Origin: a virus
Taxonomy: Duplodnaviria; Heunggongvirae; Uroviricota; Caudoviricetes
Strand: one strand, 5' to 3'
Length of the DNA: 37,809 bases
IMG/VR virus record: IMGVR_UViG_2602041644_000008
Coordinates: 1-37,809 of that record
The notes below the pieces were generated by a model that saw only the letters and a program-made list of their open reading frames with translations, did not search any database and was not told the origin of the DNA. A program made the translations under genes and the position numbers. Positions within the stretch are counted from its first letter, which is position 1, and each line of letters opens with the position of its first letter. This document shows positions 6,391 to 23,447 of this stretch, in pieces.

Positions 6391-6396
6391 AGAAAA

Positions 6397-7140: not shown

Positions 7141-7160
7141 TGCTTTTCCTCACAATAACA

Positions 7161-7175: not shown

Positions 7176-7253
7176 TATCTTGCTTTCAGGTGATCAAGCG
7201 TTAAACGCAATCAACCAAATAAGGTTGATTTTAATATTTCTTCGCGTTTATCA

Positions 7254-7268
7254 TTACCTTTTAGGTAA
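7254..7268. promoter_or_regulatory. Operator-like palindrome TTACC-TTTTA-GGTAA (copy 3)
   Basis: Perfect inverted repeat at the start of the structured leader upstream of the antirepressor. Confidence 0.6.
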
Positions 7269-7535
7269 ATTTACATCGCACTCCTCTTGTGCCATAGTAA
7301 TTGGGCACTGGCAAAATCCAGTGCCGGGATTGGTCTCCCGGATTACTACAGAGGCACATATGCCGCATAAGCGGTTTTTTTATGTGTAAAGCGCACCTAT
7401 TCTATGGTGAGCTGTGTGGGGGCACCGAAAGGTGCGCCGGGTTCCTTTGTAGCCGGTAAGACCAACTCTGCACAGTTCACCACCATCTGATTGGTCTCAG
7501 CGGTGGTGATTAACCTAACTACAAAGGTGATCGCC

Positions 7536-8228
7536 ATGAATACCAAACCTTCCATCTTTTCCTTTGAGTCATCCTGCCAGATCCGTATGTTCATGATTGA
7601 CGGAGAACCTTGGTTTGTCACCAAAGATGTGTGCAATGCTTTGAATATTGATGTTACACAAGCGAGAAAACTTGATAAAAAAGGCTGGAACAAAAAGGGG
7701 CTGTATTCAATACAGACCCCTGGTGGAATACAAGAACTATCCATCGTTTCAGAATCAGGTCTCTACATCCTTATTCTGCGTTGCAAAGAGGCAATGACAG
7801 AGGGAACGAGAGCGTTCAGATTTCTTGAATGGGTTACAGGTGAGGTTCTTCCTCAGATCCGCCGCACCGGAAGTTACATTAAAAACTCGCTCCCGCAGGA
7901 AGAACGCATAAAGATGGTTGCCGACCAGGTAGCCAACGCCACAGCATCAGCAATGATGCAGGCAATGAAGATAGAGAACAAAACCTACAGTGCCCCACTG
8001 AAGCCCGGCTACCGTAGCCTGATTCATTCTCCGTCTGGTGTTCTCGGCCTGACGGAGAACTCACTGCTGATGAATCTGCTGAACCAGTTACAGGAAGACG
8101 GGCACGATGTATCGGGCGCGGCGGCGGAGCTGACCACCATGTTCTGCTACATCGTCGGTGTGAGCAAATGCCTGCGTGATATCCAGACCCACGCGGAGTA
8201 CATCAACGACAAAGCAGGATTCTTCTGA
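7536..8228 (+). CDS. Antirepressor with N-terminal BRO-N domain and C-terminal antirepressor domain
   Basis: SD AAGGTGA before the ATG at 7536; N-terminal region (IRMFMIDGEPWFVTKDVCNAL ... GLYILILRCKEA ... FRFLEWV) matches the BRO-N fold pattern; C-terminal domain paralogous to the small gene at 6133-6390. Confidence 0.65.
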   Translation: MNTKPSIFSFESSCQIRMFMIDGEPWFVTKDVCNALNIDVTQARKLDKKGWNKKGLYSIQTPGGIQELSIVSESGLYILILRCKEAMTEGTRAFRFLEWVTGEVLPQIRRTGSYIKNSLPQEERIKMVADQVANATASAMMQAMKIENKTYSAPLKPGYRSLIHSPSGVLGLTENSLLMNLLNQLQEDGHDVSGAAAELTTMFCYIVGVSKCLRDIQTHAEYINDKAGFF

Positions 8229-8236
8229 CGGGCGGC

Positions 8237-8258
8237 GGCACAGGGATGTGCCTTTAAA
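8237..8258 (+). terminator. Putative terminator downstream of the antirepressor
   Basis: GGCACA-GGGA-TGTGCC hairpin followed by TTTAAATAATT. Confidence 0.4.
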
Positions 8259-8300
8259 TAATTCTGTACAGATTGCAGACCGGGGGTGAATAGCGTACTA

Positions 8301-8315
8301 TTACCTTAAAGGTAA
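8301..8315. promoter_or_regulatory. Operator-like palindrome TTACC-TTAAA-GGTAA (copy 4) with adjacent promoter
   Basis: Perfect inverted repeat directly after a candidate -35 TTGCAG / 17 bp / -10 TACTAT; 43 bp upstream of the 8358 cassette. Confidence 0.6.
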
Positions 8316-8357
8316 ACCTGTTTTTATTTTATACCTGTAACTTACCGGAGATTAAAG

Positions 8358-8684
8358 ATGACAAAACTTGGATTCGTGATGAGAGGTCCGGTAAGAAGCG
8401 GAACTCATGCAAAGCGTAGCAAGAGTCGTATTTTTACTGGTAAGGTTGTAGCACGTAAATCAGCTATTGGCTCGTTCAATAGTGAAAATGCGGCATTGCG
8501 CCATATTTTTATCAGCACAAAGCCAAGAGCATCCGCTGATGTGCATACAATGTCTATTCCTATCACAAAGAATATCAAGCGGATAAAAAAGCTCTCATCT
8601 GCAGAATCAAAAGAGATATCTTTCCGCCAGCTTAACTCATTAGAAACGCATATGAAGGAAGAGGAATTCGATGTTTTTGAGTGA
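8358..8684 (+). CDS. Small basic protein, putative antitoxin/partner of the YafO-like gene
   Basis: SD GGAG 8 nt upstream; 108 aa, Lys/Arg-rich N-terminus, acidic C-terminus; 14-nt overlap with the downstream gene (translational coupling). No homolog recognised. Confidence 0.4.
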   Translation: MTKLGFVMRGPVRSGTHAKRSKSRIFTGKVVARKSAIGSFNSENAALRHIFISTKPRASADVHTMSIPITKNIKRIKKLSSAESKEISFRQLNSLETHMKEEEFDVFE

Positions 8685-9183
8685 GTATAGCGGGAAGGTT
8701 ATACCTACTGGTGAGTTTAAAACTGATGACTTTCTGATTTCGCTAAAAGATGCTTTTAAACAACACTGGCGTCATGGTCATCATCCTGATCTGGGAAAAG
8801 ATACTCTTTTTGAAAGACCAGACGAAGTATTAGGCTTCCATCTCAGAAAGGTTCATGTCAATATTGGTGAATATGCATCATATTCATACTCATGTACTGA
8901 ACAGTGTTGGGATGAGTGGTCATATGGATTGATTGATGAACAAGGAAATTACAGGCCAAAACCAACCAGTAACGCATATCTCATATATGCAGTCAATGAA
9001 ATAAGAGATGCAGCCTTACTAGCTTATTGGGACCCGCCCGCACACACCAAAGCTAACGCAAAAGTTTGGATGGATTCCGTATTGAATTTCACAAAATTAT
9101 TTCATGAACGAACTAATACAGCTCCACTTAGTAGAAATGTTTATCCGTGGGATTATTCGTACAAATCCAAAAAGCCTGCATAG
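8671..9183 (+). CDS. YafO-family toxin-like protein (putative ribosome-dependent mRNA interferase)
   Basis: Strong SD (GGAAGAGGAA); segments LGKDTLFE, LRKVHVNI and YLIYAVNE...ALLAYWDPPAHTKA resemble recalled YafO motifs (GRDALYD, ERVAHIHL, HLVYCQG...WLLIAILKPEPHKLA). Recall-based; needs HMM confirmation. Confidence 0.45.
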   Translation: MFLSEYSGKVIPTGEFKTDDFLISLKDAFKQHWRHGHHPDLGKDTLFERPDEVLGFHLRKVHVNIGEYASYSYSCTEQCWDEWSYGLIDEQGNYRPKPTSNAYLIYAVNEIRDAALLAYWDPPAHTKANAKVWMDSVLNFTKLFHERTNTAPLSRNVYPWDYSYKSKKPA

Positions 9184-9264
9184 TAGTTTTTTATGGACGA
9201 AACAAAAGTCAGTGCTACACTCATTGACGCCACATTGAGGTGGCTTATAGATGGAAATTTCACA

Positions 9265-9426
9265 ATGAAAAAAGCATTTGCTGCACTGTTCGTTTTGTTG
9301 TCTCTGGTAGCTTCAACTCAGGCCTTTGCCGGTCGTTGTCAGCACGACAGCGATACTGCCGCTGACGGCTCCCGCTGCGGTGGGCGTTCTGCGGATTCCC
9401 GCCCGGGCGGCGGTGGCATTCGTTAA
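9265..9426 (+). CDS. Small secreted Cys-containing peptide
   Basis: MKKAFAALFVLLSLVASTQAFA signal peptide, then ~31-aa Gly/Arg/Asp-rich mature peptide with two Cys; weak RBS. Confidence 0.3.
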   Translation: MKKAFAALFVLLSLVASTQAFAGRCQHDSDTAADGSRCGGRSADSRPGGGGIR

Positions 9427-9432
9427 AAACAA

Positions 9433-9448
9433 GGCCGCGAAAGCGGCC
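9433..9448. terminator. Bidirectional terminator
   Basis: GGCCGC-GAAA-GCGGCC hairpin with T-rich tracts on both strands; between convergent genes. Confidence 0.55.
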
Positions 9449-9455
9449 TGTTTGA

Positions 9456-10307
9456 TCACTGTGCAGTTTTCGCTGATCGATTTTCAGCTCTAAATTCAAG
9501 AACCGTTTCAATATTTCTTTCCTTCAGCATATCAATAACATTTTTATTCACTTGACTATCACTGGTTAATAACTGGTAAACGTTGCTTCTCTCTTTATCA
9601 GAGTTTTCTTTAACAGCTGCTTTGCATGCCAAATGCTTATTGAAATTTTCTACATCGCTAGTACAGGAATTTACGGCTGCTGATGAAATATCAGACGCTG
9701 AAGAAACACCATCATCCAAACGTTTTATAGCATTTTCTATACATGAGTTAAGGGAATAAACGACAACTGAGCGATACCCTTCAGACGCACACCATTCTAA
9801 ATTTCTTGAAGGATCGAGTGGTTTTACTTCGCTGGATTGAATTAACTTGTCAAAAACTGACTTATATTCAATCTGTTTTTTATCTATAGCCCATACTTCA
9901 GTAGCTGATTTATAATTCCCCGTATGCCTATTAACATCAAATCCATGTTTTATAAGCAAATCTGCCCATGAAAGATTTATTGATTCATTGTTATGAGGCC
10001 ATTTTCCTGTCAGAACCGCCCCCATAGACCCCATATATCCGCCATATGATGGTATAGCACCATGGCTCAGTAACTTCTCAGCAACCACAGGGCAATTAAT
10101 TACATAAGAGGCGTAAAGCCCATTCCATAAAGCCCCTCTATAGTAATCGCCACGATTAGGTTCTTTTAAGTCGATAGCCTTTGATAATTGTTCACACGTT
10201 TTGCATGCATCAAAGTTATCCTTATTGCATTGCAATGAACTGGCAGCTGTAGGATTTACAGAGACTATTGAAAGCACTATGCCAAAAAACAAATTTATTT
10301 TTTTCAT
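9456..10307 (-). CDS. Secreted Cys-rich protein of unknown function
   Basis: Sec-type signal peptide; about ten Cys; AT-rich; start overlaps the stop of the upstream internal virion gene, so it is in the late operon. Confidence 0.5.
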   Translation of the reverse strand: MKKINLFFGIVLSIVSVNPTAASSLQCNKDNFDACKTCEQLSKAIDLKEPNRGDYYRGALWNGLYASYVINCPVVAEKLLSHGAIPSYGGYMGSMGAVLTGKWPHNNESINLSWADLLIKHGFDVNRHTGNYKSATEVWAIDKKQIEYKSVFDKLIQSSEVKPLDPSRNLEWCASEGYRSVVVYSLNSCIENAIKRLDDGVSSASDISSAAVNSCTSDVENFNKHLACKAAVKENSDKERSNVYQLLTSDSQVNKNVIDMLKERNIETVLEFRAENRSAKTAQ

Positions 10308-10308
10308 C

Positions 10309-13300
10309 CTATTTCATCTGCTCTTCAACTTTATTTAGTAATGGTGATATCGCCCACAGATTCTGAAAAGGTAGCATTTTACGGACAGCGTGGGTTTGCT
10401 GGCTGTCAAATTCTCCGTTAAGTACACCATTCGCAACCGTCGCGGCATCACCGCCAAGATCAAAGGTAGGACCAAGTAAAGCACCAATAGTATTACGACT
10501 CTGAAACCTTGATACCGGAGGCGCACCAAACATCGCGCCAAGACCAAACCTACCGCCGCTTATGTTCTCAACGGTATTCAGCGGCTCAGAGAGCCAGCCA
10601 AGCATTCCGCCCCGGTCGATCCCCTCTTTCACAAGGTTATTCCAGCTGTAGTCGATATCGCGACCGCTTAACTTCTGTTTCATCATATAGACCATTGAGC
10701 CAAGCGCAATCGTGCCAAGCGCACCAAGATAGAATGCAGCATCGCCCTGCTGGATACCAGATACTAGCACCCTGTTATGCTGTGCGAAGATAAACGTTTT
10801 GAACTGCGTGATCATCTTCCAGCCTTCTTTACTAAAAAACAGCGGTGTATCACCTACGCCAGGCGTTACAATCACTGAGTCTACATCTTTCAGCACTGCA
10901 GACTGGAAAATCTCTCTAGCGAAACGGTCATCCCACAGATGACTATGCCCGGTTAACAGCCCGTCCATATCCTCTCCGTGCTTCCCGAATTGCTCCCCGA
11001 TTCGGCGCAGAACATCTTCATTGATGCCGACCTGTGCCATCTTCCGCATTTCACTTTTGGAGAGCGTGCCACCAGCAGAAACTTGGCGAGCCGCGTCAAG
11101 TATCCTCGACTGCACTATCATCCCGGACCATGATTTAAGTGCGCTGTTCCACTGATTCATCAGCGTCCAGTTACCGAATTTCTGCGTCATCCAGTTCAGG
11201 CCTCGCTCAGCGGCGCTTCTCCGGCTATAGGGGTCAGTAAGATCCGCTATAGCCTTTGTACGCGTAGACAGGACATAATCAAGCCCAACGGCCATTTCTC
11301 GCAAATCCCTGGTTGCAATCTTCACTGAGTCCATATTTTTAAGCATGCTTACCATTGGTCCGAGAGATTTTCTCAGGCCATGCTGCATCATCGGTCGCAT
11401 CAGATCAGTTGCAGCGGAGACGGTCATTCCACCAAGCAAACGGAGGAAGTTAATATTCCTAGCAACTCGCCCGGCACGAACAAAGAAACTGCGTGGATCT
11501 TGAGGTGCGCCGTAAGTACCAAGCAGTCGGTCACGCATAGCCGTAATATCCCTAATATCAGCCTCCCGTTGCTTCTCAAGAGCTGCACGTCGTTTAGGTG
11601 TTTTAGCCTCTTTTATTAGCCGGGTATATTCCTCACTAACCTGACGGATTTGCTCCCCCATATCTTTACGGCCAAACTGCGCAGTCAGCTCAATTTCTGG
11701 CGCCACCTGCCGGAGATAACTTTCCATGATGTAGTTAACATCTGATTCAAGAAAATCTTCTATACGCTCATCAGGAATAAGCAGCGTTCGGCTTTTAGTG
11801 AAACCAGCCCGACCAACGAGTCTCTCTGGGATAATATCGGCTGGTACAAGCCCGGAAGGTGCGCCTATTATTTTATTCACGATCTCGTCAGCAGCGTCCT
11901 CTGCTTCCTCTCGGGATAGAGGCTCCATCTGCTTCAGTGCTCGCTCGCGGCTTGCATTCAGCCTTGTGGTTGAATTTGCCCGTTTTTGCAGTCGGCGAAG
12001 CTCAGAACGATATTTCCGTGGATTATCCAGCAACTCCATATGGCGCTGATAGACAGGAAGCTCACTCTTTGCCTGCGCTATATCATCAAGGCGAGTTTTA
12101 AGGTCAGAGCTTTCTTTCATCATTCTTGCCTGAAGTTTTTCTGATGAAGTCTCGGCCAACTCTTTTTCTATTCTTGTAAGACGCGCCTGTGTGTCAGTCT
12201 CCTGAGATATAAGCCTATTTCGTTTATCCAGTTCTTCCATGAGTAGAATTTTTTTACCAGACCATTTCTCCGCTTCAGCGATTTCACTAGCGAGAGCATC
12301 AGCGCGCAGTGCTGATTCCTCTGCAGTTTTTAGCAATGAATTTATCTTTTCAATTCGCTGACCTGCTTTGTCAGCACCTTTGGCACTAATCCCTTGTATC
12401 CAGTTGGCAATTCGCCCTCTGAATTCCGTGCGGTCGGAAAGTATCTTATCGAACTTATAAATGCGGGGAAGATAACTTTTCGCCGTCACGACATCGATAT
12501 CCTCAGGAAGGATCCCCAATTCCTGCATACGGGCTTTTGTGGTCTCAAAAATGGGGCGGATTCTGGCGGCTGCTTGTGAAACCTCAGGAATATCACTCTG
12601 ATCACCACGGCGCATAGCCATGCCAACAGCTTCATTGAAATCAATAAAGTTCATCCTCTTCACGCCGCGGGCGCTGACAGATTTGCTGTACTGCTGGTAA
12701 GCATCACGAGTAGCTTCCATCTGCTTATAAAGCATGGCGTCGTATTGCTTAATCTTAGTCTCGACTGCCGTAAACGTAGCCAACCCCTCATCATTTTTGG
12801 CGAAGAAATAGTTATTTTCGGCAAGCTGCTGGTTAATCTGACGGGAAACAAGAGATGGTGATTGCGCCAAGCGGCCAGCAGGAGTGACACTCAACGTTTT
12901 GTTAGCAAGTCCAAGTCCAGCGAGCTGTTCCTGATCGAGTGTGGTATTGAAAACCTGAGCTGCACCAATGCTTTGAGGAGAATCCATACCTCGCAAATGA
13001 TTACCTACTGAGTTAACCACTGCCTCGCGCGCGCTAGGTCCAGCAAGTAGCTGTGCACCAGCACCAAGGATCCCACCAACGAGAGCATCAACAACAACGT
13101 TCGATACGCTCTCCATCGGTGAGCGAGCTTCCTGAGTGGCCTGCAATGCGGCCTCTGAAGCAACACTGCCAGCAGCATTGGCTAAAGCAAAACGTCCGGC
13201 TGTTTCTGCAATACGACCGCCACGAACGACAGCGCCGAACGGAATAAACATAGAAATCGCATTGAATGGATCTGCTAATCTCATTGCTACAGAAGAGACT

Positions 13301-13698
13301 GTACCAGCAAATCCCAAGCCTGAATTGTATTCCATGTCAGCTCTCTGCTGATCGATTCGATGTTTAATTGCCATTGTTTCTTCAGGCGAACCGGAGTTGA
13401 TAAACGAATCTGCAAAATCTTCATAGCCTTTAATATCTGCTGCATCGTTATCAAATGGGTTATATCCTTCAACCCTGTCAAACTGACTGAAAGGAGCACT
13501 GGCAATAAAGCTACCCAGCGTGTTATCTATACGAAATGCTGCTTGTCTAGACCTTTGAACGCGTTGATCACTGGTAAATGGGTTCACAGCAGAAAGCAAA
13601 GAAGGTGTTTCCATATAGAAATTACTGTCATCAGGTGCTGCTATTTGCTGAATATCCTCGCCAAGCAACTCTTTAGGATCCTGTTCATATATCGGCAT
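10309..13698 (-). CDS. Internal virion/DNA-ejection protein (T7 gp16-like by position)
   Basis: 1129 aa, last and largest of the internal-protein series after the tail tubular genes; start overlaps the upstream stop. Confidence 0.55.
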   Translation of the reverse strand: MPIYEQDPKELLGEDIQQIAAPDDSNFYMETPSLLSAVNPFTSDQRVQRSRQAAFRIDNTLGSFIASAPFSQFDRVEGYNPFDNDAADIKGYEDFADSFINSGSPEETMAIKHRIDQQRADMEYNSGLGFAGTVSSVAMRLADPFNAISMFIPFGAVVRGGRIAETAGRFALANAAGSVASEAALQATQEARSPMESVSNVVVDALVGGILGAGAQLLAGPSAREAVVNSVGNHLRGMDSPQSIGAAQVFNTTLDQEQLAGLGLANKTLSVTPAGRLAQSPSLVSRQINQQLAENNYFFAKNDEGLATFTAVETKIKQYDAMLYKQMEATRDAYQQYSKSVSARGVKRMNFIDFNEAVGMAMRRGDQSDIPEVSQAAARIRPIFETTKARMQELGILPEDIDVVTAKSYLPRIYKFDKILSDRTEFRGRIANWIQGISAKGADKAGQRIEKINSLLKTAEESALRADALASEIAEAEKWSGKKILLMEELDKRNRLISQETDTQARLTRIEKELAETSSEKLQARMMKESSDLKTRLDDIAQAKSELPVYQRHMELLDNPRKYRSELRRLQKRANSTTRLNASRERALKQMEPLSREEAEDAADEIVNKIIGAPSGLVPADIIPERLVGRAGFTKSRTLLIPDERIEDFLESDVNYIMESYLRQVAPEIELTAQFGRKDMGEQIRQVSEEYTRLIKEAKTPKRRAALEKQREADIRDITAMRDRLLGTYGAPQDPRSFFVRAGRVARNINFLRLLGGMTVSAATDLMRPMMQHGLRKSLGPMVSMLKNMDSVKIATRDLREMAVGLDYVLSTRTKAIADLTDPYSRRSAAERGLNWMTQKFGNWTLMNQWNSALKSWSGMIVQSRILDAARQVSAGGTLSKSEMRKMAQVGINEDVLRRIGEQFGKHGEDMDGLLTGHSHLWDDRFAREIFQSAVLKDVDSVIVTPGVGDTPLFFSKEGWKMITQFKTFIFAQHNRVLVSGIQQGDAAFYLGALGTIALGSMVYMMKQKLSGRDIDYSWNNLVKEGIDRGGMLGWLSEPLNTVENISGGRFGLGAMFGAPPVSRFQSRNTIGALLGPTFDLGGDAATVANGVLNGEFDSQQTHAVRKMLPFQNLWAISPLLNKVEEQMK

Positions 13699-16445
13699 TA
13701 TTTGCCCCCTGCGTATATATTGCTCGGAAGGTAATTGGCTGAACCATAACCGAATGGTTTGGTCAGATCTGGAGGAGTATATCCATCTTTATTGCTGAAC
13801 TGCGGCAGCGGATTGCCTTCTCTCCGCACTCTAGCCTCATCAACACGCTGTTGCTGGAACTGAATGGTTTGCCTGTACATTGGAGATGTCAGCTGATCCG
13901 GCTTGAAACGAACAGGGAGACCATTTTCTCCAATATAATTTCTCGGTTCTATCGCTCCGTTTGCGTCAGGCTGTAAAACCATAACAGCATAACTCCTATC
14001 CCTTGCCGTAAGGCCATCAGAAACAAGTATTAAGTCCGTATCACTGCGAGGACCGCCAAAGGATTTTGATTTAAGCTCGCGTTTTTCCTGCTCCCACTGC
14101 CCCTGTATCCAGTTACCAGCACCATTATTTACTCCGTACAATGCCTCAGGTGCATACTTCATAACCTCTGCTTTGCCATTAACCGTAGAAACTCCCCAGG
14201 TGGTTCTGATCATGGCATTGGTCATTTTCTCAGCCTGTTCTGCATCGCCACCTGTCTGTACAAAGTTAGCATCGTAAATTGTCTGGTAATCTCGCTGATA
14301 GGCCGCATTTGATTTTCCTGGATCGGTAATATCCGGAGACCACGAACCAAAGGAAGTCAGACTGCTGGCGTTATTTTGTGCAGCAGTTGCCCTCGCCGCG
14401 ACATATTTTTTGTCTCGCATGGCAGTGGAAAGCATCTGTTTCATTCGGTCATCCTGTTGGAACACCTGGCTGTAAGCCATATCAACAGCCTTATCCTCCG
14501 GCACTCCAGCGCGGGAATAATCGTAAACCTTGCCGTAAAATGCCATCGTACTTTTATCAAGTGTTGCCGCTGCCGCCGGATTATTATCGAATAACTGACC
14601 GTAGAATTTTGCCATCGGGACAACCAGCGCAGGATCTCTTGATGTTGCTCCACTGTTAAGCATTGTTTTAACCTGAGTTGGTATCATGCCGCTTTTAGTT
14701 GTGACGGTGACCAGTGTATTGATGCTCTGCGGATCAGATATGGAAAACGAAGGCGCGATATCCTGCGCGAAATAACGGTCTACCGCTGCCTGATTGTTTT
14801 TGTCGTTCGGGTCCAGCGGGAAGTTATTTTGCATTGAAGACACGAACCTGTTTCTTCCCTGCTGAATCTCCCACTCCCTATCCATCTCTTTAAATTTGGC
14901 CTGCATTTTCTCCCAGCGTTGCTGGTTAGCTGCAAATCCAGGAGCGTTTGGATCCTGTGGACGTAAACGTTCAAGAATGTCTTGTCGTCCTTCTGGAGTG
15001 AGGTCTTTAGCGGCACCAATGACACCTCCATATTGTATCTGCGCCTGCATATCCTTCCACTTCATAGCGCCAATGCGCGGACCATTGGCCCGGATAAAAT
15101 CGTCCTCAGAAGGTAACTTCTCAGGTTTCAATCCTTCATCAAGGGCTGAATATGCATCTTTAACTACGGTGCTAAGCTGGTCCGCATACTGCTGGCGGTA
15201 CTGATTTCTCAGCTCATTAGCCTGCCTCAATGCCTGTATTTGCATTTGAGGGCTCATAGCATCAAATGCCGCATTGCCCGTATAACGCTTAGGTGAATCA
15301 AGGTTAGTTAGACCAAGGGCTGCCGAGATACCAGTTTCAAGCTGTTCGGTGCTATAAGGCATACTGCCATTTTCGTGTTTAATAATCCCAGCACATAAAG
15401 CAGCTAGTGTCTTTGGGTTAGAGATATCAAGCTGATCATTCTCCCCAACACCAAGCTCACCACACAATGCCCTAATATAAGCATCAGTATTATTACCATC
15501 ACTAGCCGGAGCATAGCGATTAACAATCTCGCTAACGGTGTCATAGCCTTGACGCTGGTAAGACAACATATTTTTACCCAACGCGCGGATTCCATGCTCA
15601 GGGGTAGCAAACGTTGCAAAACGTCCATCGCTACCGATCTGACCTTCCCACGGGTTAGATTTGCTCGCTTCAATATTACCAGGGTTATTATTACGTAAAC
15701 CACGAGCATCCAATGAATTACCATGTGATATTGCACGACTCACACCATCAAGATCCCCTGGCTCTCCATTAACCTGAAGAAACTCGTTGTATTTTTGAGC
15801 GATATTTCCTATCCATGCTTGCTGCCCCATTTGTTCCTTGAGCTGAGTTTTCTGCTGAACACGCCACTCATCAGGAAGCCCATGCGCATCAGCGTATTGA
15901 TCAATAGATTCAAATCGCTGCTTGGCTAAATCGACAAATGCTTGGTTATCGCTATATAGCCCCGCAGACTGAGTGACAGCCAATGCATTTCCTGACAAAT
16001 ACGTTTGATCTTGGAATTGCTGAAACTGCCCAACTTCATATCGACGTGCCTGATTGTAATAAGACTGCATAGACTGCTGGAGTTGAAAGGATAATTTATT
16101 CCTTTCCTCACTTTCAGGAATTGAGCCTAATAATGCCTGAGCCCTTTCCTGCATATTTTTCATAACAGCGTCACTCTGACCAAGAGCGTTTTTACCCTGT
16201 TTAGAAATCAGCCCACTTTCAGGGTTGTTAATCTGGTCATCTGCAAATTGGTTAAATTGCAGTAACGCCTCCTGGGCCATAGCAACATTCGCTTTCTGCC
16301 TGGCTTCACCATATGCCACCGCATACTGATCTGCGACATTCGCCAGCACCTGACCTGCTTGAGGAACATCGAAGATCTGAAAACCACCGGTTTGCACACC
16401 ACGACTTTGCACCTGGCGTCCGGATGTAGTAGGAACAACAGGCAT
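13698..16445 (-). CDS. Internal virion/DNA-ejection protein (T7 gp15-like by position)
   Basis: 915 aa, T7-like position; contains a conserved-looking globular segment (RGLRNNNPGNI...GRFATFATPEHGIRA) that may be cell-wall-active. Confidence 0.55.
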   Translation of the reverse strand: MPVVPTTSGRQVQSRGVQTGGFQIFDVPQAGQVLANVADQYAVAYGEARQKANVAMAQEALLQFNQFADDQINNPESGLISKQGKNALGQSDAVMKNMQERAQALLGSIPESEERNKLSFQLQQSMQSYYNQARRYEVGQFQQFQDQTYLSGNALAVTQSAGLYSDNQAFVDLAKQRFESIDQYADAHGLPDEWRVQQKTQLKEQMGQQAWIGNIAQKYNEFLQVNGEPGDLDGVSRAISHGNSLDARGLRNNNPGNIEASKSNPWEGQIGSDGRFATFATPEHGIRALGKNMLSYQRQGYDTVSEIVNRYAPASDGNNTDAYIRALCGELGVGENDQLDISNPKTLAALCAGIIKHENGSMPYSTEQLETGISAALGLTNLDSPKRYTGNAAFDAMSPQMQIQALRQANELRNQYRQQYADQLSTVVKDAYSALDEGLKPEKLPSEDDFIRANGPRIGAMKWKDMQAQIQYGGVIGAAKDLTPEGRQDILERLRPQDPNAPGFAANQQRWEKMQAKFKEMDREWEIQQGRNRFVSSMQNNFPLDPNDKNNQAAVDRYFAQDIAPSFSISDPQSINTLVTVTTKSGMIPTQVKTMLNSGATSRDPALVVPMAKFYGQLFDNNPAAAATLDKSTMAFYGKVYDYSRAGVPEDKAVDMAYSQVFQQDDRMKQMLSTAMRDKKYVAARATAAQNNASSLTSFGSWSPDITDPGKSNAAYQRDYQTIYDANFVQTGGDAEQAEKMTNAMIRTTWGVSTVNGKAEVMKYAPEALYGVNNGAGNWIQGQWEQEKRELKSKSFGGPRSDTDLILVSDGLTARDRSYAVMVLQPDANGAIEPRNYIGENGLPVRFKPDQLTSPMYRQTIQFQQQRVDEARVRREGNPLPQFSNKDGYTPPDLTKPFGYGSANYLPSNIYAGGK

Positions 16446-17020
16446 CAGTAACCTCCTATTTTGAATCGGGAGTCAGAATTCATAAAACCTGAGTTAGATA
16501 ACATTGGCGTCCCACCACTAGATGTACTTCCTTTAGAGAACGGACTCCACGTCCCACCAAACATCTGGTACGCACCGTATGCCTTCAGAGGCGCAGTGAG
16601 TAAAGTTGTTGCTGCTCCCACATTCCCCTGTTTACGGGCTGAACTGGCTTCTGCTTTATAGTTGGCAGCCTGAACCTGATAACCGTAAGCCTCGCGTTGC
16701 GCGTTATTCACCGTCGTCAGAGAATCAAGAGCGCCAAACTGGGCAGTGTCGCCAAATATATCCAGCGCGTTACCTGTAGATAAATCAGCGCCGGTAGCCC
16801 CCATTGTCGCCGCCTGTGTACCAAGCCGCTGTCGGGTCTCTCTGCGCCGTTGCTCAGCTTCAGCGTTACCTCTGTTTATTGCATCATTTGCCTGAGCTGT
16901 GGCTATATCTGCGTTCGCTTCTGCAACCTTCGAGGCATACTTTCCCTGTTGGTACTGGGTGTATGCCTGAATGCCACTCATGGCGAGCATTGCGCCACCA
17001 GCAATAACCGGATCGCACAT
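16445..17020 (-). CDS. Internal virion protein (T7 gp14-like by position)
   Basis: 191 aa, Ala/Gln-rich; translationally coupled to neighbours. Confidence 0.45.
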   Translation of the reverse strand: MCDPVIAGGAMLAMSGIQAYTQYQQGKYASKVAEANADIATAQANDAINRGNAEAEQRRRETRQRLGTQAATMGATGADLSTGNALDIFGDTAQFGALDSLTTVNNAQREAYGYQVQAANYKAEASSARKQGNVGAATTLLTAPLKAYGAYQMFGGTWSPFSKGSTSSGGTPMLSNSGFMNSDSRFKIGGY

Positions 17021-17484
17021 TATTTTCTCTCCATGTGAAATCTGTGGAAATTAAGACCAAGAGCACCATAAGGCGCGGCTTCTTCAAGCCTGAATCCAAG
17101 CCAGTGCAGCCATGCTTTGGCAACATGGTTTCGCTCGTCGACATAGTTTTCCAGGCGCGGATAAACTGCCAGCATCTGCTGCAATACAGGGCGGCAGTGG
17201 CGAAGAAATGTCTTCTGATATTTTTCGATACGGCTGGTTCCGACCAGCCAGGGCGTACCATTGCCACCGATCATTGACGCCGGAGATACGCCAAACATGG
17301 TTACCAGTTCTCCGTTCGCAAATCCTGACCAGGCCATAGTCGCAGTACGCAGACCAACACGCAGCGCATCTTCGGTAGTCATCAGTGATACCGCATACAG
17401 TTCGTCAATATCAGCCTGACGAACATCCGGCAAAATCATCTGAAGATGCTCTTCGGTTGCGGGAATAATTTGAACACCGATCAT
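17020..17484 (-). CDS. Internal virion protein (T7 gp13-like by position)
   Basis: 154 aa, immediately after tail tubular B. Confidence 0.4.
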   Translation of the reverse strand: MIGVQIIPATEEHLQMILPDVRQADIDELYAVSLMTTEDALRVGLRTATMAWSGFANGELVTMFGVSPASMIGGNGTPWLVGTSRIEKYQKTFLRHCRPVLQQMLAVYPRLENYVDERNHVAKAWLHWLGFRLEEAAPYGALGLNFHRFHMERK

Positions 17485-19955
17485 CAGAATCCCCCAACAG
17501 TAAGGCGAGGAATAACGGCAAGAACAGACAGCGGCAACGGATCAAGCTGACGGATTTTTACACGTCCGTTTTTGCCCCAGTTACTGTCCAGTTTCACTTC
17601 TACTTTTCCGGTAGCATCATCAACAGGATCATCGTAGAACTCGAATTCACGCTGTGGATATTCGTACCATTTACCGCCGGGCGTAGTCGCCCAGATGCCG
17701 CGACTGGCATTCACAACCAGAGTAACGGAGGGGATCACCTGTTTTTTGTCCAGCAGCGTTTCCTGTCCGTTAATGTTGATATCCAGTGTTTCGAATTCAG
17801 CAGTTATTGGCAGGCCGATGTGCACTACAGCCCCCGGAGATTCCAGCGTGACGGCACCTCCGGAAACCACTTTCTGTGGTTCCACGTTCGCATCAGAGAG
17901 AATGTTTACGGTCTGGCCTTCAAGATGAGACAGGCCTCCAAATGTCCGGCGCGCCATCTGCCAGTTCGTGGTGGCCACATTCCTGAGGGATGGCGGGACG
18001 TTCCTGTTAGCACGAACCACTACAGCGGTGTTGCTGGTTACAGAAATAATGTCGCAACGTAATTCTTTTGACACTTCATCGCCAGTATCAGGATCAGTTC
18101 CGGTATAAGGGAACTGTAGTTGCGCGCCGACATCACTACTGGTGAAGTACGCACCACCAGAAACACTGATTGTATATTCCGCATGGTAATCCCATTCACC
18201 AGAACCACCAGTGATGGTCATCGTTCTGTCAGACGTATTTCTTCCATCATAGCTAAGGCCAGAATCAACAAAGAAAGCATCTTCATCGCTGGTAAATAAA
18301 CGGCTGGACAGTCGCTCGATGTATCTCACTGTTTGCCCGTTAACGGTTCGGTTAACGACGAAATACACCGCATCTTCATTGCCTTCGCTGATACTGCATG
18401 TGCTTTCATATTTTCCGGTACTGGATTGTGGTGCCCATGCAAAAACCTGCTGATCACGCAAATAGGTCATCACCAGTAATTTACCGTCATCACGAATGCA
18501 GAAGGCACTGGAGTAAGGGACAATCGAGAAGCACCAGTCAACAATGCTGTGCTTCTGAAAAAGATGATTGGCAAGGATGGTCAGGTCGTTCCCCTGATAG
18601 CCGTCAACATCGAATGAGTAGGCCAGATCACGGACAACGCTGCCTTTCTCCTGGACGAACAGAGCAATATTCGCCACGGCAATTGGCGGGACGTTGCTTG
18701 AGCCATTTGATCCCTGAGAGCTGAATGCAAATGATGATGGGGTTAACACTTTGTTCTGGTCGCCGGTGATGACGTACTCACCTCCGGAAGTCAGCGCCAC
18801 CAGAGAACCAACATCAATCAGGTGACGGATCTCATTAACCTGACGCCCGGCATAGGTGTAGATAATTCTGTCGTCATCCTGCGTAGGATTGCTTTTGCCA
18901 AAATCCTTATAATCCCCGGTACGGCTGGCCCAGATAGTCTGAGGGAACGCAGTCGATGCGGCGAAGTAAAGACGTTGTTGATAATAAACAACAGTGCCAG
19001 GATAACCATTAACACTGTTCCAGGCATATTTAGCCCATTTATAGCTGGCATTATCCTCGCCAACGACCTGCGAAGGGATATAGGAAATCACCTCGGCAGT
19101 TGCAGTAGTTCCATTTGCAGCAGTGATACGGGCAATGCCAAAACCACTGTGCAGATATTCCCACTCAATGCCGGTATCATCATCACCGGATCCGCCCCAG
19201 CCATCCCATGATGTGCCTTCTGTATGCGAAGGGCGCAAAGTGCCTGTTTTACCTGCTGTAACAGCGCGATAGTAGTTACTGTCTGCACGGCGAACATCGT
19301 CAATCGACGTACTCTTACTGGTTTCCCATACCGGCACTGAATCCACTGCAGGCTGTTCCAGATAGAACAATTTGCCTACCTGCTCCGAGCCAAAAATAGA
19401 GGCGCTTGCCGTTAACGTAATTGTCCCGGTGCTGGCGCTGGCATAAACCGTCACTGACTCGTCAATATTGATATCTTCAAATGGTCCGTTCTTCGTTACC
19501 ACATCAACCAGTTGCCAGTTGTCATGCGCATAGCGACGCAACTCTTTCGGCGGGTATGCCGGATGAACCAGCGTAAGCACGTCTGCGCTTTGCGTGAATT
19601 TAATTCGGAACAGATCGGCTTCAGTATATGGCGTGGCAATTTCATAAATAACATTGCTGCTGTTCAGCACCAACGCACCATCTTTGATAACGCGCATGTA
19701 CTGGTGTCCGAACTCCAGAGCATAGGTCTGAACCGTCGAGAACTGGAACGGGATCAGGCGGCATTTCCGATTTTGGTATTTGGCGGCACCGACAAAACGC
19801 GTACCAGGTCGATTCTCAACGCCGCCATACTGCCGCACGATAAAGTTATCGCACTTGCGCAATGCTACCTGGTACTTCGCCATGTCAATACGCCCGTACA
19901 ACGACGGTCCAATCTCACCACCGGCAAAACTGGGCTGGATCCAACTGATAGCCAT
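17484..19955 (-). CDS. Tail tubular protein B (T7 gp12-like nozzle)
   Basis: 823 aa (T7 gp12 is ~794 aa) directly after a ~200-aa tubular-A-like gene; beta-rich composition. Confidence 0.6.
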   Translation of the reverse strand: MAISWIQPSFAGGEIGPSLYGRIDMAKYQVALRKCDNFIVRQYGGVENRPGTRFVGAAKYQNRKCRLIPFQFSTVQTYALEFGHQYMRVIKDGALVLNSSNVIYEIATPYTEADLFRIKFTQSADVLTLVHPAYPPKELRRYAHDNWQLVDVVTKNGPFEDINIDESVTVYASASTGTITLTASASIFGSEQVGKLFYLEQPAVDSVPVWETSKSTSIDDVRRADSNYYRAVTAGKTGTLRPSHTEGTSWDGWGGSGDDDTGIEWEYLHSGFGIARITAANGTTATAEVISYIPSQVVGEDNASYKWAKYAWNSVNGYPGTVVYYQQRLYFAASTAFPQTIWASRTGDYKDFGKSNPTQDDDRIIYTYAGRQVNEIRHLIDVGSLVALTSGGEYVITGDQNKVLTPSSFAFSSQGSNGSSNVPPIAVANIALFVQEKGSVVRDLAYSFDVDGYQGNDLTILANHLFQKHSIVDWCFSIVPYSSAFCIRDDGKLLVMTYLRDQQVFAWAPQSSTGKYESTCSISEGNEDAVYFVVNRTVNGQTVRYIERLSSRLFTSDEDAFFVDSGLSYDGRNTSDRTMTITGGSGEWDYHAEYTISVSGGAYFTSSDVGAQLQFPYTGTDPDTGDEVSKELRCDIISVTSNTAVVVRANRNVPPSLRNVATTNWQMARRTFGGLSHLEGQTVNILSDANVEPQKVVSGGAVTLESPGAVVHIGLPITAEFETLDININGQETLLDKKQVIPSVTLVVNASRGIWATTPGGKWYEYPQREFEFYDDPVDDATGKVEVKLDSNWGKNGRVKIRQLDPLPLSVLAVIPRLTVGGF

Positions 19956-20560
19956 CAGGACAACCTCGCAATGGTAAACTCGTCAACCGGTGGCTGTGGT
20001 TCCTGTGATTCATTCTGGCTATGCGAGCCAGCACTCAGAATCACGCGATTGTACATATTGAGGGCAAACGTACCGAGGTCTGCCTTCCCAGTCAGCGCCA
20101 TGTTAATAGCTGCCGCAAGACGCCAGGCCAACGCCTCCATAAAAATGGCATCAAACATGTTCACATCTGAAACGCGAGAGACATACTTGAGCCATGCCTG
20201 CGGCTGGTCTGTGTAGATCAACTTTCCTGTTCCGTTGGTGTCTGCACCAACTTCGTACTGAACGCGCATTGCTGCTGTTGGATTGCGTACACCAGGAAGC
20301 ATAATTTCAGTAATGCGCAGACAATCGGACGGGTACTGGTACGCATATTCCCAGTCAGGCGGTGGATTGCTCGTATCTGCAAGCGCCACGCGTTTGGTAG
20401 CAAAGTTCCAGTCAAAATCAGAAAGCACAGCATCACGGCAGGCCTCAAAGTGCAGCGAACATTCCCCCGCTTCCTTGCTGGCTTCCGTCAGGCTGTTAAT
20501 ACTGCGGCTGTTGCCAATATTGGACAGCGCACGATTGCAGATCTCTACTACAGAGGCCAT
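19955..20560 (-). CDS. Tail tubular protein A (T7 gp11-like adaptor)
   Basis: 201 aa; position and size match gp11; N-terminal region loosely resembles gp11. Confidence 0.55.
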   Translation of the reverse strand: MASVVEICNRALSNIGNSRSINSLTEASKEAGECSLHFEACRDAVLSDFDWNFATKRVALADTSNPPPDWEYAYQYPSDCLRITEIMLPGVRNPTAAMRVQYEVGADTNGTGKLIYTDQPQAWLKYVSRVSDVNMFDAIFMEALAWRLAAAINMALTGKADLGTFALNMYNRVILSAGSHSQNESQEPQPPVDEFTIARLS

Positions 20561-20573
20561 AAGTTTCTATACT

Positions 20574-20598
20574 CCTGCAATAAAGGGGCCGAAGCCCC
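20574..20598 (-). terminator. Intra-operon terminator/attenuator between head and tail genes
   Basis: On the minus strand GGGGC-TTCG-GCCCC followed by TTTATT. Confidence 0.4.
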
Positions 20599-20616
20599 TT
20601 GTCTGATTCGCGAGGC

Positions 20617-20961
20617 TTACACGCCCAGTTCTTTACGCTTATCTGCGATCTTCTTGCGTAGCGTTTCGGCTTTGGCGTTATGGTGTGGCTTCTCGTTAAA
20701 GAGCAATTCGTACTCTTCACGGAGCTTATCCAGTTCACCATCATCTGACACATCGTTGATGATTTTGGTGCTGGTTGCTGCCATTGACACCTTTCCTGCA
20801 ACTTTTGCTTTTGCCTGTCTGGCTGCATCGTTAACAGGTTCCAGTGCGCTACCAGGCTCACCTTCGTATTCGATTTCTGCCCCCTCCGGCCACAGAGTGT
20901 TATGGATATGAGAGAGGCGCAGAACGCGGTATCTTGGTTTCTCACCTGACATCGATATCAC
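20617..20961 (-). CDS. Hypothetical head-associated protein
   Basis: 114-aa ORF in the structural operon with charged C-terminus. Confidence 0.4.
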   Translation of the reverse strand: MISMSGEKPRYRVLRLSHIHNTLWPEGAEIEYEGEPGSALEPVNDAARQAKAKVAGKVSMAATSTKIINDVSDDGELDKLREEYELLFNEKPHHNAKAETLRKKIADKRKELGV

Positions 20962-20962
20962 C

Positions 20963-21400
20963 TTAACCAGTTACTTTTGAGCGGATCGGGTACGGCGTAT
21001 TGGCATCAACATCCAGACTGATACCCGCAGTGAATTTGCCAGCCGTTAGTGGGCCAGTTGCGACGGAGTAGTTAACACGCAGATATCGCTGAACACCGGC
21101 AGGCACCTTTGCAGAAACAACTCGTTTACCTGCTGTCAGGGCGGTCTTTGCCAGTGCGCCACTATCATAAATAGTGGTCCATGAGCTGTTATTCTCACTC
21201 GTCTGCAACTGGATGTTTACAGTTGCCTCACCACTTGCCGTGGCGGCTTCGTTAACCAGCACCCAAAACTCAAGCGGATAACCCACGCCGATATCACGAC
21301 GTTTTCCGTCAATTGGACCGAGATCGATTACGTCAGTAGAAGCCGCGGTATTCGTAACCGCCTGAGCTTCGGAGAACATCAACAGTTTGTCGGTGATCAT
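20963..21400 (-). CDS. Hypothetical structural protein (possible capsid decoration protein)
   Basis: 145 aa, beta-rich, directly downstream of the capsid gene. Confidence 0.4.
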   Translation of the reverse strand: MITDKLLMFSEAQAVTNTAASTDVIDLGPIDGKRRDIGVGYPLEFWVLVNEAATASGEATVNIQLQTSENNSSWTTIYDSGALAKTALTAGKRVVSAKVPAGVQRYLRVNYSVATGPLTAGKFTAGISLDVDANTPYPIRSKVTG

Positions 21401-21451
21401 CTTCTTTCTCCATTAGTGGGTCTGTTACGACCCACAGGTTAATAACAGGCG

Positions 21452-22438
21452 TTACACCACGCGGGCTTCTGTTTCCAGAAGCGCATCAGTTTCACGGATT
21501 GGTACACCACGGAATGAAGTCCACCACTCGCCTTCTGTCTCTTTTACGCTGATCGCCAGAGATGTTTTCTCCAGAGATTGCAGATCAAGAGCCTGGCCTA
21601 CAGTGCGGTTCATGTAGAACACCGGGCGACCCATGCCACGATTTGGAATGCGATGCAGTGCTTTAACCATCAACTTCGCAATATTTGCGGCAGAGGATGG
21701 TTCTGAAAGATTGCTGACATCGATGTTTGCAATGCGAACAACATAACGCCAGTCACGCAGAGCAAGTCCGTTATCCCATTTGTAATGGGTACGGTAGCCT
21801 TCGTACTTGCCGCCATTAGCATCTTCCAGTGTCACCTGGCCTTTATCTTCCATCTGAATGCCAGCCTTCTGCCCTTTCGGGAAGATGCCATGCACGGTGT
21901 TTTCGCCCCACACCACTAACCAGATTGAGGTGTTATCTGTACCCGTGCCACCAGCATCAATGATGTTCTGAGCATTACCTGCAGACAGGCTGGAATAGCG
22001 GGAGGACAGTCCCATAAACTGCTGAGGGTTAACGCTGGAATCACCATAAAACAGCGTCTGCGCCATCTGCTGATTCATCGCTTCAATAAATGCGCGGTCT
22101 TCAGACAGGCGGAATTCGGCGGTATTGCCGTTCAGATCAGCCAGTGACTTATCGACTTCAGCATAGGTTTCCAGCATGCCCACGGAATCGGTTACCTGCA
22201 CTGTGGTTGATTTGCTTGGCTGTACGCCATAGTTCAGCAAACGCCAGGTAGCTGAAGGTAAACCAGAACGAATGGTGGTTTTGTGTCCGGTAGGAAGGTT
22301 CCCTTCGACAAAAGGCATATCCTGAAGGATCGGGTTAGTTTGACCGAGAAGCTCGATAATCTTATCGACTTTCCCATCTGGATCGACGCGCTTACCCCAG
22401 TCAGCCAGCGTTAGCGCAGTTAAGCCTTTAACAGCCAT
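21452..22438 (-). CDS. Major capsid protein
   Basis: 328 aa immediately after the scaffold gene; composition and position typical of HK97-fold coat proteins. Confidence 0.7.
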   Translation of the reverse strand: MAVKGLTALTLADWGKRVDPDGKVDKIIELLGQTNPILQDMPFVEGNLPTGHKTTIRSGLPSATWRLLNYGVQPSKSTTVQVTDSVGMLETYAEVDKSLADLNGNTAEFRLSEDRAFIEAMNQQMAQTLFYGDSSVNPQQFMGLSSRYSSLSAGNAQNIIDAGGTGTDNTSIWLVVWGENTVHGIFPKGQKAGIQMEDKGQVTLEDANGGKYEGYRTHYKWDNGLALRDWRYVVRIANIDVSNLSEPSSAANIAKLMVKALHRIPNRGMGRPVFYMNRTVGQALDLQSLEKTSLAISVKETEGEWWTSFRGVPIRETDALLETEARVV

Positions 22439-22452
22439 TGTTATTTCCTCTC

Positions 22453-23154
22453 TTATTTGCCATAGAGCACTTCGGCCGCACTACGCTGGCCTTCATTACC
22501 ACCGGTGACCATGCCATCTTCAGACATCGCCTTTCCGATTTTCACGAACGTTTTGACCAGATCAGGGTGATTACCCAGCCCGGTGGTGTTCAGATATTCT
22601 TTGAGTTCAGGTGTCCCGAACTGGTCAAGCGCACGCTGTGCGGCGCTAAGGTTAGAAATCAACTTGTCGCCACCGATTTCTTTGTCAGCTTTTACATCAG
22701 CAGCCCACTGCTCGGTTGTTTTCTGCCAGGCTTCTGCCTGGCGCTGCTGAACACCTGCCAGAATCTTCGGATAAGCATCAACCAGCTTTTGCGCTTGCTC
22801 GTTGGTCAGGTTAAGTTCTCGCGCCACCGGCTCGAATTCCTTCAACGCTTCTGTATCCAGCTCTACGCCTTCGGCAGCCTGAAACTCGTACTTCTCCGGC
22901 GCACCATCCGGTTTATCGCCGTCCTTTTTTTCACCCTGCTTATCGCTTTCAGGCTTTTTGTCATCAGCAGGTTTATCGCCATCAGCAACAGGTTGCGGCT
23001 TATCACCTTCTTGTTGTGATGGATCACCAACTGGAGCATGGTTATCACCTGCAGGCGCTGACGGTTCTGACGCAGCCGGAGCTGCTCCACCATCGACTGG
23101 TTGCTCATTGCAAAGACGGCGATACAGCAAACGCTCAAATAAATTCATGATCAC
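22453..23154 (-). CDS. Scaffolding protein
   Basis: Acidic, Pro/Asp/Lys-rich low-complexity N-terminal half plus helical C-terminal half; between portal and capsid. Confidence 0.6.
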   Translation of the reverse strand: MIMNLFERLLYRRLCNEQPVDGGAAPAASEPSAPAGDNHAPVGDPSQQEGDKPQPVADGDKPADDKKPESDKQGEKKDGDKPDGAPEKYEFQAAEGVELDTEALKEFEPVARELNLTNEQAQKLVDAYPKILAGVQQRQAEAWQKTTEQWAADVKADKEIGGDKLISNLSAAQRALDQFGTPELKEYLNTTGLGNHPDLVKTFVKIGKAMSEDGMVTGGNEGQRSAAEVLYGK

Positions 23155-23447
23155 TCCTGTTCACTGGCCTCTTTGGCCATCTTCAAATACTGTTCAGGGC
23201 AATGCGCCATAACGCGCTGAAACAGTTCCAGCGCCAGATTGCGTTGCCCCTCATTAAATGCCATTGCCATAGCGTCCATCGGTGAGATAGCGGAAAACAC
23301 ACGGCCTTTCTCCAGCACCGACCAGACAACGCGACGCCCCTGTTCACTGCTCATGACAAAGCGAATGTCATCAATTTCACGCTGCGCCATGTCACGTTGC
23401 TTACGGGCGTTTTCTTCTTTCAGTTGATCGTCTTCGTAATCTGTCAT
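23151..23447 (-). CDS. Small head-morphogenesis protein of unknown function
   Basis: 98 aa, charged; overlaps portal stop and scaffold start. Confidence 0.45.
   Translation of the reverse strand: MTDYEDDQLKEENARKQRDMAQREIDDIRFVMSSEQGRRVVWSVLEKGRVFSAISPMDAMAMAFNEGQRNLALELFQRVMAHCPEQYLKMAKEASEQE

Follow-up and report, generated by a model that had tools for sequence, protein, structure and literature searches.

A probable tail-and-ejectosome operon with an alternative distal cassette in a phiV10/epsilon15-type prophage of Escherichia coli

The stretch of DNA analysed here, referred to as the window, covers 37,809 nucleotides (nt), positions 1 to 37,809 of the IMG/VR record IMGVR_UViG_2602041644_000008, and, judged by its sequence, is a temperate podovirus prophage of the phiV10/epsilon15 type inserted between yfgI and guaA of Escherichia coli. 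Six genes lie head to tail on its minus strand between positions 10309 and 20560. In the direction of transcription they are predicted to encode an adaptor (gp11-like, 201 amino acids (aa), 20560-19955), a nozzle (gp12-like, 823 aa, 19955-17484), a gp13-like protein (154 aa, 17484-17020), a gp14-like protein (191 aa, 17020-16445), a gp15-position protein (915 aa, 16445-13698), and a gp16-family protein (1129 aa, 13698-10309). Each of the five internal junctions is a 1-nt overlap of the form TGATG or TAATG. An initial annotation, made from the letters and a list of open reading frames (ORFs), had reported these six ORFs with mostly overlapping start and stop codons; all of them are present as described. 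Chance cannot account for uninterrupted, translationally coupled ORFs that reach 1129 codons. The corresponding proteins of phage T7, gp11 to gp16, measure 196, 794, 138, 196, 747, and 1318 aa and stand in the same order, and the claimed likeness to T7 in size and order is thus observed; the size match is not given by phiV10 or epsilon15, however, and is brought about by the alternative distal cassette described below. An intrinsic-terminator hairpin at 9449-9432 (minus strand; stem of 7 pairs, 6 of them G-C, followed by TGTTTTT) closes the operon. It is the only strong terminator in the region and lies in DNA common with the prophage of the sister lysogen AST20, directly outside the swapped block. 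At 20583-20600 on the minus strand, between the head-accessory genes and the adaptor gene, a second, G+C-rich hairpin (AAGGGGC-TTCG-GCCCCTT) was read from the sequence; it is kept in phiV10, and the terminator scan did not rate it as a terminator. In T7 the T-phi terminator is located directly upstream of gene 11. Taken together, the evidence makes it highly probable that this set of six genes is the late tail-and-ejectosome operon of a temperate podovirus of the phiV10/epsilon15 type, with an alternative distal cassette.

The identity of the element was determined by comparison with phage and bacterial genomes. Megablast against phage genomes matched the complete 10.25-kb operon region to Escherichia phage EC.W1-9 (PP445227) with 99.2% identity, and a blastn map shows EC.W1-9 to be collinear with window positions 9187-26035 at 98-99% identity. 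EC.W1-9 was deposited as a phage isolated from sewage, and its record names all six operon proteins "hypothetical protein". The megablast match to Escherichia phage phiV10 and several O157 typing phages is approximately 98% and limited to the first ~4 kb of the region. The first four operon genes are 97.9% identical to phiV10 and ~75% identical to Salmonella phage epsilon15 at the DNA level, bearing out what the initial annotation had offered as a guess, namely that the nearest relatives are epsilon15/phiV10-type podoviruses. Over the head, tail-proximal, replication, and immunity blocks the blastn identity of the backbone to phiV10 is 97-98%, and the alignable blocks sum to ~20 kb of the ~36.6 kb of prophage in the window. 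By collinearity and identity of sequence the prophage belongs with the epsilon15/phiV10 group, minus the p18-p20-type proteins and the capsid staple. The first 1071 positions of the window hold the chromosomal genes yfgH (1-516) and yfgI (532-1071), which have matches in 5422 of the 5426 complete E. coli genomes, whereas similarity to phage genomes by blastn begins at 1164. Chromosomal DNA up to 1071 and phage DNA from ~1164 therefore identify an integrated prophage, as had been claimed, and the att site should be found within 1072-1163. The integrase end is located beyond the 3' end of the window; in AST20 the same site is taken by a complete prophage of the phiV10 type whose integrase end lies beside guaA. 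A HTH_3/CI-type repressor gene is divergent from a small ORF in the cro position, with genes for a DnaT-like initiator and a lambda-P-family protein nearby, and this arrangement makes the earlier description "temperate, lambdoid-style regulation" reasonable. No phage ORF of RNA polymerase size is present, the only ORFs above 700 aa in the window being those for the tailspike, the nozzle, and the 915-aa and 1129-aa proteins; the complete AST20 prophage likewise has no RNA polymerase, and an integrase and a repressor are present in it. A temperate, integrated element with no ORF of this size is not a member of the Autographiviridae, the T7 family proper, whose phages encode a single-subunit RNA polymerase and are strictly lytic.

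The completeness of the prophage bears on whether the operon is that of a functional phage. The capsid staple gene of the epsilon15 gp10 type, which in phiV10 is p13 (324 bp, 8134-8457), is absent between the p12-like and adaptor genes (window 20560-20568), and tblastn found no staple homolog anywhere in the window and none in EC.W1-9. The Bbp16-type cement gene (20963-21400) is still present. This missing gene, together with an integrase end that falls outside the window, would fit a decaying remnant in which the operon is intact by chance or which was only recently inactivated elsewhere. Such a remnant is nevertheless very improbable: the structural ORFs are all full length, EC.W1-9 was deposited as an isolated phage and has the same operon while also lacking the staple gene, the 1129-aa gene is found with 95-100% identity in 120 complete E. 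coli genomes, and an integrase is present beside guaA in sister prophages that occupy this site. The staple gene occurs in 433 complete E. coli genomes compared with 534 that have the nozzle gene; about one fifth of such prophages may be without it. A tie between loss of the staple and the alternative cassette was considered and rejected, as strain SBF22 carries the staple gene together with this cassette.

The adaptor and nozzle assignments are drawn mainly from solved tail structures of podoviruses of other hosts, the closest being those of Carin-1 (Cobetia, 8ck1) and LME-1 (Legionella, 9efk). The 201-aa protein falls in phrog_394 ("tail protein", E 1.7e-86) and matches the Carin-1 connector 8ck1_E (E 2e-25 in a single-sequence search, 1e-41 in a profile search). 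Its AlphaFold2 (AF2) model, built from 29 homologs with a predicted local distance difference test (pLDDT) value of 82, was compared with known structures using Foldseek, resulting in template modelling (TM) scores of 0.84 for 8ck1_E and 0.65 for the LME-1 adaptor, with KP32 tail tubular protein A (TTPA) also matched. T7 gp11 (7box_M, 7ey7, 6r21) was retrieved with E 4e-6 to 1e-4, probability 1.00, and TM 0.53-0.58, and the model thus supports a predicted portal-binding adaptor with the gp11 fold. The 823-aa protein belongs to phrog_376 ("tail protein", E 0) and matches the Carin-1 "Tail Nozzle" 8ck1_A with E 2e-217 (44% identity by tblastn) and the LME-1 nozzle 9efk_M with E 5e-16. The nozzle and adaptor of LME-1 have been described as lacking sequence similarity to T7, yet as T7-like in structure and closest to Carin-1 (PMC12407071). 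The homologs of the nozzle among the matches listed are all at least 82% identical, a set too shallow for a useful model. The third partner in this part of the tail is the tailspike (771 aa, 3621-5936, minus strand), which would interact with the adaptor and nozzle through a predicted N-terminal virion-attachment domain. Residues 1-180 match domain D1 of Carin-1 Dpo31 with E 9e-35, the same chain is part of the 8ck1 tail complex, and the N-terminus matches many tailspike PHROGs. This agrees with the earlier remark that the tailspike N-terminus resembles podovirus adaptor-binding domains. The receptor-binding part of the tailspike gene (~3584-5295) has a very low G+C content (GC) of 0.36-0.39 and is 97% identical to AST20. 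It is unmatched in phiV10 and EC.W1-9, and sharing is limited to the N-terminal attachment domain. A weak pectate-lyase-like match was also seen, and the difference looks like a serotype-specific swap.

The next two proteins of the operon can be linked to T7 by protein families. The 154-aa protein matches phrog_308 ("internal virion protein") with E 1.6e-62, and T7 gp13 falls in the same PHROG with E 1.1e-42; the Pfam model Phage_T7_Gp13 gives a sub-threshold match (13.6 bits against a cut-off of 25). These family matches support a predicted gp13-like small internal virion or assembly protein. The 191-aa protein passes the cut-off of the Pfam family T7_gp14 (PF24072, 33.7 bits against 27), with the match spanning residues 1-167 and profile positions 1-182 of 187, and it belongs to phrog_418. 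In sister prophages the Prokaryotic Genome Annotation Pipeline (PGAP) names this allele "virion core protein, T7 gp14 family". By analogy the protein would be a gp14-like core protein that forms a pore in the outer membrane, which we infer from its family.

Alignment of the 1129-aa protein to phrog_342 ("internal virion protein with endolysin domain") gives E 4e-233 and starts at profile position 192, and T7 gp16 is in the same PHROG (E 0, positions 4-1227). Pfam gives no SLT match, and a T7-type N-terminal GH23 lytic transglycosylase was not found in the protein. Because the phrog_342 alignment starts only at position 192, the 1129-aa protein lacks this N-terminal domain of T7 gp16. Internal virion proteins of Vibrio podophages share ~40% identity with it and gp38 of Escherichia phage TL-2011b 36%; weaker matches are to podophages of Pelagibacter, Alteromonas, and Mesorhizobium, and phiV10 p19 and p20 show no similarity to it. 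Hydrophobic segments are located at residues 197-219 and 988-1006. The latter falls in a stretch that BLASTP aligns locally, weakly and without significance (E 1.2), to a T7 gp16 region containing the hydrophobic segment 1136-1154. Overall, the profile evidence supports assignment as a putative gp16-family internal virion protein. RefSeq and PGAP label the gene "DUF919 family protein", also at positions 12001-15390 of the compared locus L006, and the protein exceeds the Pfam DUF919 cut-off of 21 bits with a score of 23.4. We consider this match probably spurious, as it comprises only 46 residues (530-575) and the family is a 62-residue baculovirus family; the label, propagated to 120 genomes, is probably spurious as well.

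The 915-aa protein aligns end to end with phrog_1044 and is composed of two parts of different relationship. Residues 1-499 are 44% identical to phiV10 p18, while the C-terminal half is unrelated to p18; instead, residues 489-900 match the C-terminal part of the protein that precedes the gp16-family gene in Vibrio phage CKB-S2 (29% identity, E 1e-43). Full-length relatives are found in prophages of Klebsiella, Salmonella, Serratia, Yersinia, Providencia, Proteus, and Pectobacterium. An AF2 model was made from 34 homologs (pLDDT 76, predicted TM score (pTM) 0.45), and the only Foldseek hits in the PDB with E<=1e-3 are to T7 gp15 (7k5c_A, 7eyb_A, 6yt5_A), with E 5e-5 to 9e-4, probability 1.00, and TM 0.18-0.25. 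The next-best hits are to generic helical repeats with probability <0.25. Low TM values are expected because the protein is a hinged helical protein with an inserted domain. This domain, a predicted Enc34-type (PHA02564) peptidoglycan glycosidase, occupies residues ~247-399 (15249-15707, minus strand) and matches the catalytic domain of the Hafnia phage Enc34 endolysin (7q47) with E 1.9e-16, or 1e-27 as a profile, and the N-terminus of Gp29 in 9vvp (a 1295-aa chain) with E 1e-36; no Pfam or NCBIfam model detects it. Enc34 represents the muralytic PHA02564 group, which has an all-helical lysozyme-like fold with a catalytic Glu and a conserved Trp and Tyr (PMC8943055). The catalytic Glu of Enc34 (RHENGS) aligns with E358 of the 915-aa protein (KHENGS), which is invariant in 34 of 34 homologs, and Y323 and the aromatic residue at 311 are likewise conserved. 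The homologous N-terminal half of phiV10 p18 includes the Enc34-type domain as well. By sequence, the hydrolase of this ejection apparatus is Enc34-type with Glu358 kept, and its carrier is the gp15-position protein and not the gp16 homolog. The model and the fold hits support a putative gp15-like ejection protein, a long helical scaffold into which a peptidoglycan hydrolase domain is inserted.

The labels of some families would allow another function for the two largest proteins. PHROG labels of phrog_1044, phrog_873, and phrog_2276 include "endolysin" and "tail length tape measure protein", and these names, together with the PGAP and Pfam DUF919 assignment, could indicate that the 915-aa and 1129-aa proteins are lysis, tape-measure, or other proteins and not ejection proteins. 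The tape-measure and endolysin matches are, however, confined to the hydrolase domain (915-aa residues ~194-411), and DUF919 covers only a short internal segment, whereas the whole 1129-aa protein aligns to the T7 gp16 family. The phage also has a separate holin, a GH19 endolysin, and a spanin cassette. The endolysin gene (1762-2391, minus strand), already recognized as GH19 in the initial annotation, scores above the cut-off for Pfam Glyco_hydro_19 (38.3 against 25.5 bits). Position, translational coupling, and the gp15 fold hits fit ejection proteins, and a role in lysis or tail-length determination is thus very unlikely.

A related question is whether the ejection proteins resemble those of T7 or those of P22, in which gp7, gp20, and gp16 are dispersed in the head. 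The portal gene lies upstream of the operon (23444-25123, minus strand) and encodes a 559-aa protein whose translation ends ...QARQQRAQQQQQQQMM..., the Gln-rich tail noted earlier being a C-terminal poly-Gln. The protein belongs to the T7 gp8 family, matching Pfam PF12236 (Head-tail_con) with E 2e-186 and 620 bits against a cut-off of 27; the match to P22_portal is negligible (E 4.2). A tRNA-Arg gene (anticodon TCT, 25772-25848, plus strand) separates the terminase gene from the portal gene, the structural genes being on the other strand, and the same tRNA-Arg is annotated in the AST20 prophage. Trees in a review place the epsilon15 gp14-like and gp16-like proteins nearer to those of P22, and its text describes epsilon15 gp15 and gp16 as "small" (PMC8954989); with pairwise similarity to T7 absent, "T7-like" could then be a misnomer for the set. 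In addition to the portal family, several observations speak against such P22-type proteins, namely the gp11 fold of the adaptor, the 191-aa protein passing the T7_gp14 cut-off, the placement of the 1129-aa protein in the PHROG of T7 gp16, and sizes of the 915-aa and 1129-aa proteins that are T7-like and not P22-like. The same review reports a T7-like core stack in epsilon15 (PMC8954989). A P22-type apparatus therefore appears unlikely, slightly less so than the lysis or tape-measure roles.

Several results weigh against a T7-like tail and ejection set. When the six proteins were each compared with T7 gp11-gp16 by pairwise BLASTP, no match was significant, the best values being E 0.002 for a C-terminal stretch of gp15 and E 0.35 for the nozzle against gp12, which are also in separate PHROGs. 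Using family profiles against the single T7 sequences, hhalign gave probabilities of 0.1% for the 201-aa protein with gp11 and 1.4% for the 915-aa protein with gp15, and BLASTP likewise gave no signal for either pair. The nozzle is linked to gp12 indirectly, through Carin-1, LME-1, and a literature statement (PMC12407071). The gp15 link is weaker than the others, given its TM of 0.18-0.25 and model pTM of 0.45, and the basic C-terminal residues of T7 gp16 are not conserved in the 1129-aa protein. What is said about incorporation into the virion, stoichiometry, the order in which the proteins leave, and enzymatic activity is taken by analogy. NCBIfam showed no match for any of the eight proteins tested. 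Because the pairwise BLASTP comparisons are not significant, the relationship of the operon proteins to T7 is supported at the level of profiles or predicted folds only. Of the homologies that the initial annotation expected from BLASTP and HHpred, the relatedness to phiV10 and epsilon15 is clear and the T7 links emerge from profiles and folds, whereas direct comparison with T7 by BLASTP and hhalign was null.

The late tail-and-ejectosome operon differs from that of phiV10 mainly in its distal part. A blastn map against phiV10, EC.W1-9, and AST20 delimits an exchangeable distal-ejectosome cassette of 7.1 kb on the minus strand (9452-16538). It alone among the large blocks lacks blastn matches to both phiV10 and AST20; its flanks are 97-99% identical, and the block is collinear with EC.W1-9. 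Its genes are those for the 915-aa and 1129-aa proteins and a 283-aa ORF, preceded by the C-terminal tail of the gp14-like gene. On the left it joins the backbone at codon 160 of the gp14-like gene, on the right just before the shared terminator. The 191-aa protein is the same as phiV10 p17 through residue 160 (...GGTWSPF), beyond which the two are unrelated, with a divergent tail of 31 residues (161-191) here compared with 21 in phiV10. The position of the junction within this tail suggests that the tail may contact the gp15-position protein. In phiV10 the counterpart block encodes p18 (837 aa), p19 (600 aa), and p20 (824 aa), so that the cassette presents a two-protein, T7-like layout in place of a three-protein one. 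A third version is found in TL-2011b, with proteins of 905 and 1004 aa. The 905-aa protein, gp37 (5111-7828 of the compared locus L007), is collinear with the 915-aa protein and has a Pfam SLT (GH23) match (30.2 bits, residues 263-342) in the slot that holds the Enc34-type domain here and in phiV10. In CKB-S2 the homologs of the 915-aa C-terminal half and of the gp16-family protein are encoded by adjacent genes, and these two parts therefore travel together; the two-protein layout of TL-2011b points to the same co-inheritance. Among the 5426 complete E. coli genomes, the nozzle gene is present in 534, the phiV10-type p19-p20 in 324, and the 1129-aa gene in 120. These observations may be read, tentatively and with considerable doubt, as a distal ejectosome half that acts as a plug-in cassette (gp14-like C-terminal tail, gp15-position protein with an Enc34-type/SLT slot, and gp16-family protein) in at least three versions (phiV10, the present prophage, and TL-2011b) on a backbone of 97-99% identity. 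The codon-160 junction would then mark the interface between conserved and exchangeable parts, and the cassette would set which envelopes or exclusion systems the phage can pass.

The 283-aa ORF (10307-9456, minus strand) is the last gene of the swapped block and follows the 1129-aa gene after a 1-nt spacer. Its translation begins MKKINLFFGIVLSIVSVNPTAASS, with an N-terminal signal peptide, and its local GC is 0.41 compared with 0.46-0.51 in the neighbours. Among phage records it is found in EC.W1-9 only, and 55 representative relatives were retrieved from 1.84 billion proteins; the N-terminal ~125 residues recur in proteins of 160-170 aa and as repeats in very long proteins. No Pfam, NCBIfam, or PADLOC match was obtained for it. 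An additional virion protein was considered and is unlikely, given the signal peptide, the low GC, and its absence from Klebsiella phages that share the 1129-aa gene. The ORF is probably a moron, possibly a periplasmic one acting, for example, in superinfection exclusion. Between the tailspike gene and the ejection operon, positions 6118-9426 hold mostly small plus-strand ORFs that vary among related prophages, including a BRO-N-type protein (named from the annotation of a sister prophage); PADLOC gave no match for the ORFs of this region.

A mechanism for the operon products can be drawn from T7 and epsilon15 (PMC8954989, PMC12391199). The adaptor would form a ring on the portal with the nozzle as a gated tube below it, and tailspikes would dock on both through their D1-like N-terminal domain. 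An internal core made up of the gp14-, gp15-, and gp16-like proteins would be packaged on the portal, and the gp13-like protein would serve as a small internal or assembly factor. Upon engagement of the O-antigen by the tailspike, the nozzle gate would open and the core proteins would exit; in epsilon15 the internal core exits and a trans-periplasmic tube is formed (PMC12391199, PMC8954989). The gp14-like protein would insert in the outer membrane and form a pore, the 915-aa protein would form a tube across the periplasm while its Enc34-type domain cuts peptidoglycan locally by means of Glu358, and the 1129-aa protein would complete the tube and reach the inner membrane through its hydrophobic segments, providing a conduit for the DNA.

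Comparison with known systems places the prophage closest to EC.W1-9, which shares the six genes, the 283-aa ORF, and the absence of the staple gene; the tailspike and some of the early genes of EC.W1-9 are different. With phiV10 and epsilon15 (Uetakevirus) the genome architecture is shared and the adaptor, nozzle, gp13-like protein, and most of the gp14-like protein are conserved. In contrast to the present cassette, phiV10 has three distal proteins, p18, p19, and p20, of which only the N-terminal half of p18 is related to it, and phiV10 also has the gp10-type staple gene that is missing here. TL-2011b has the same backbone and a two-protein distal layout, with SLT (GH23) instead of the Enc34-type domain. 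T7 has in common with the prophage the gene order, portal family, adaptor fold, gp13 and gp16 PHROGs, gp14 Pfam family, and gp15 fold hits. It differs in carrying a GH23 transglycosylase at the N-terminus of gp16, the present prophage having instead an Enc34-type domain inside the gp15-position protein, and in using tail fibres, whereas the prophage has tailspikes, is temperate, and has no RNA polymerase-sized ORF. In the SP6-like phages K1E and K1-5, likened here by literature description only, hydrolase or lysozyme activity is likewise found on the gp15-like protein (PMC8954989), and the same review regards such placement of a hydrolase as part of a pervasive mosaicism of ejection proteins (PMC8954989).

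That epsilon15-type temperate podoviruses have a T7-like tail and ejection set is established knowledge, and RefSeq names phiV10 p14-p17 "tail protein" and "internal virion protein". The present analysis adds details of annotation and the description of a distal-ejectosome cassette that can be exchanged and whose hydrolase slot is interchangeable, which extend the known mosaicism of podovirus ejection proteins and introduce no new principle. Six "hypothetical" proteins can be re-annotated as adaptor, nozzle, and ejection proteins in EC.W1-9 and in the prophages of 120 complete E. coli genomes. Near-identical prophages that differ only in the distal cassette and the hydrolase within it provide a natural swap series, which could be used to address which contacts between ejection proteins co-vary and whether the cassette affects host range.

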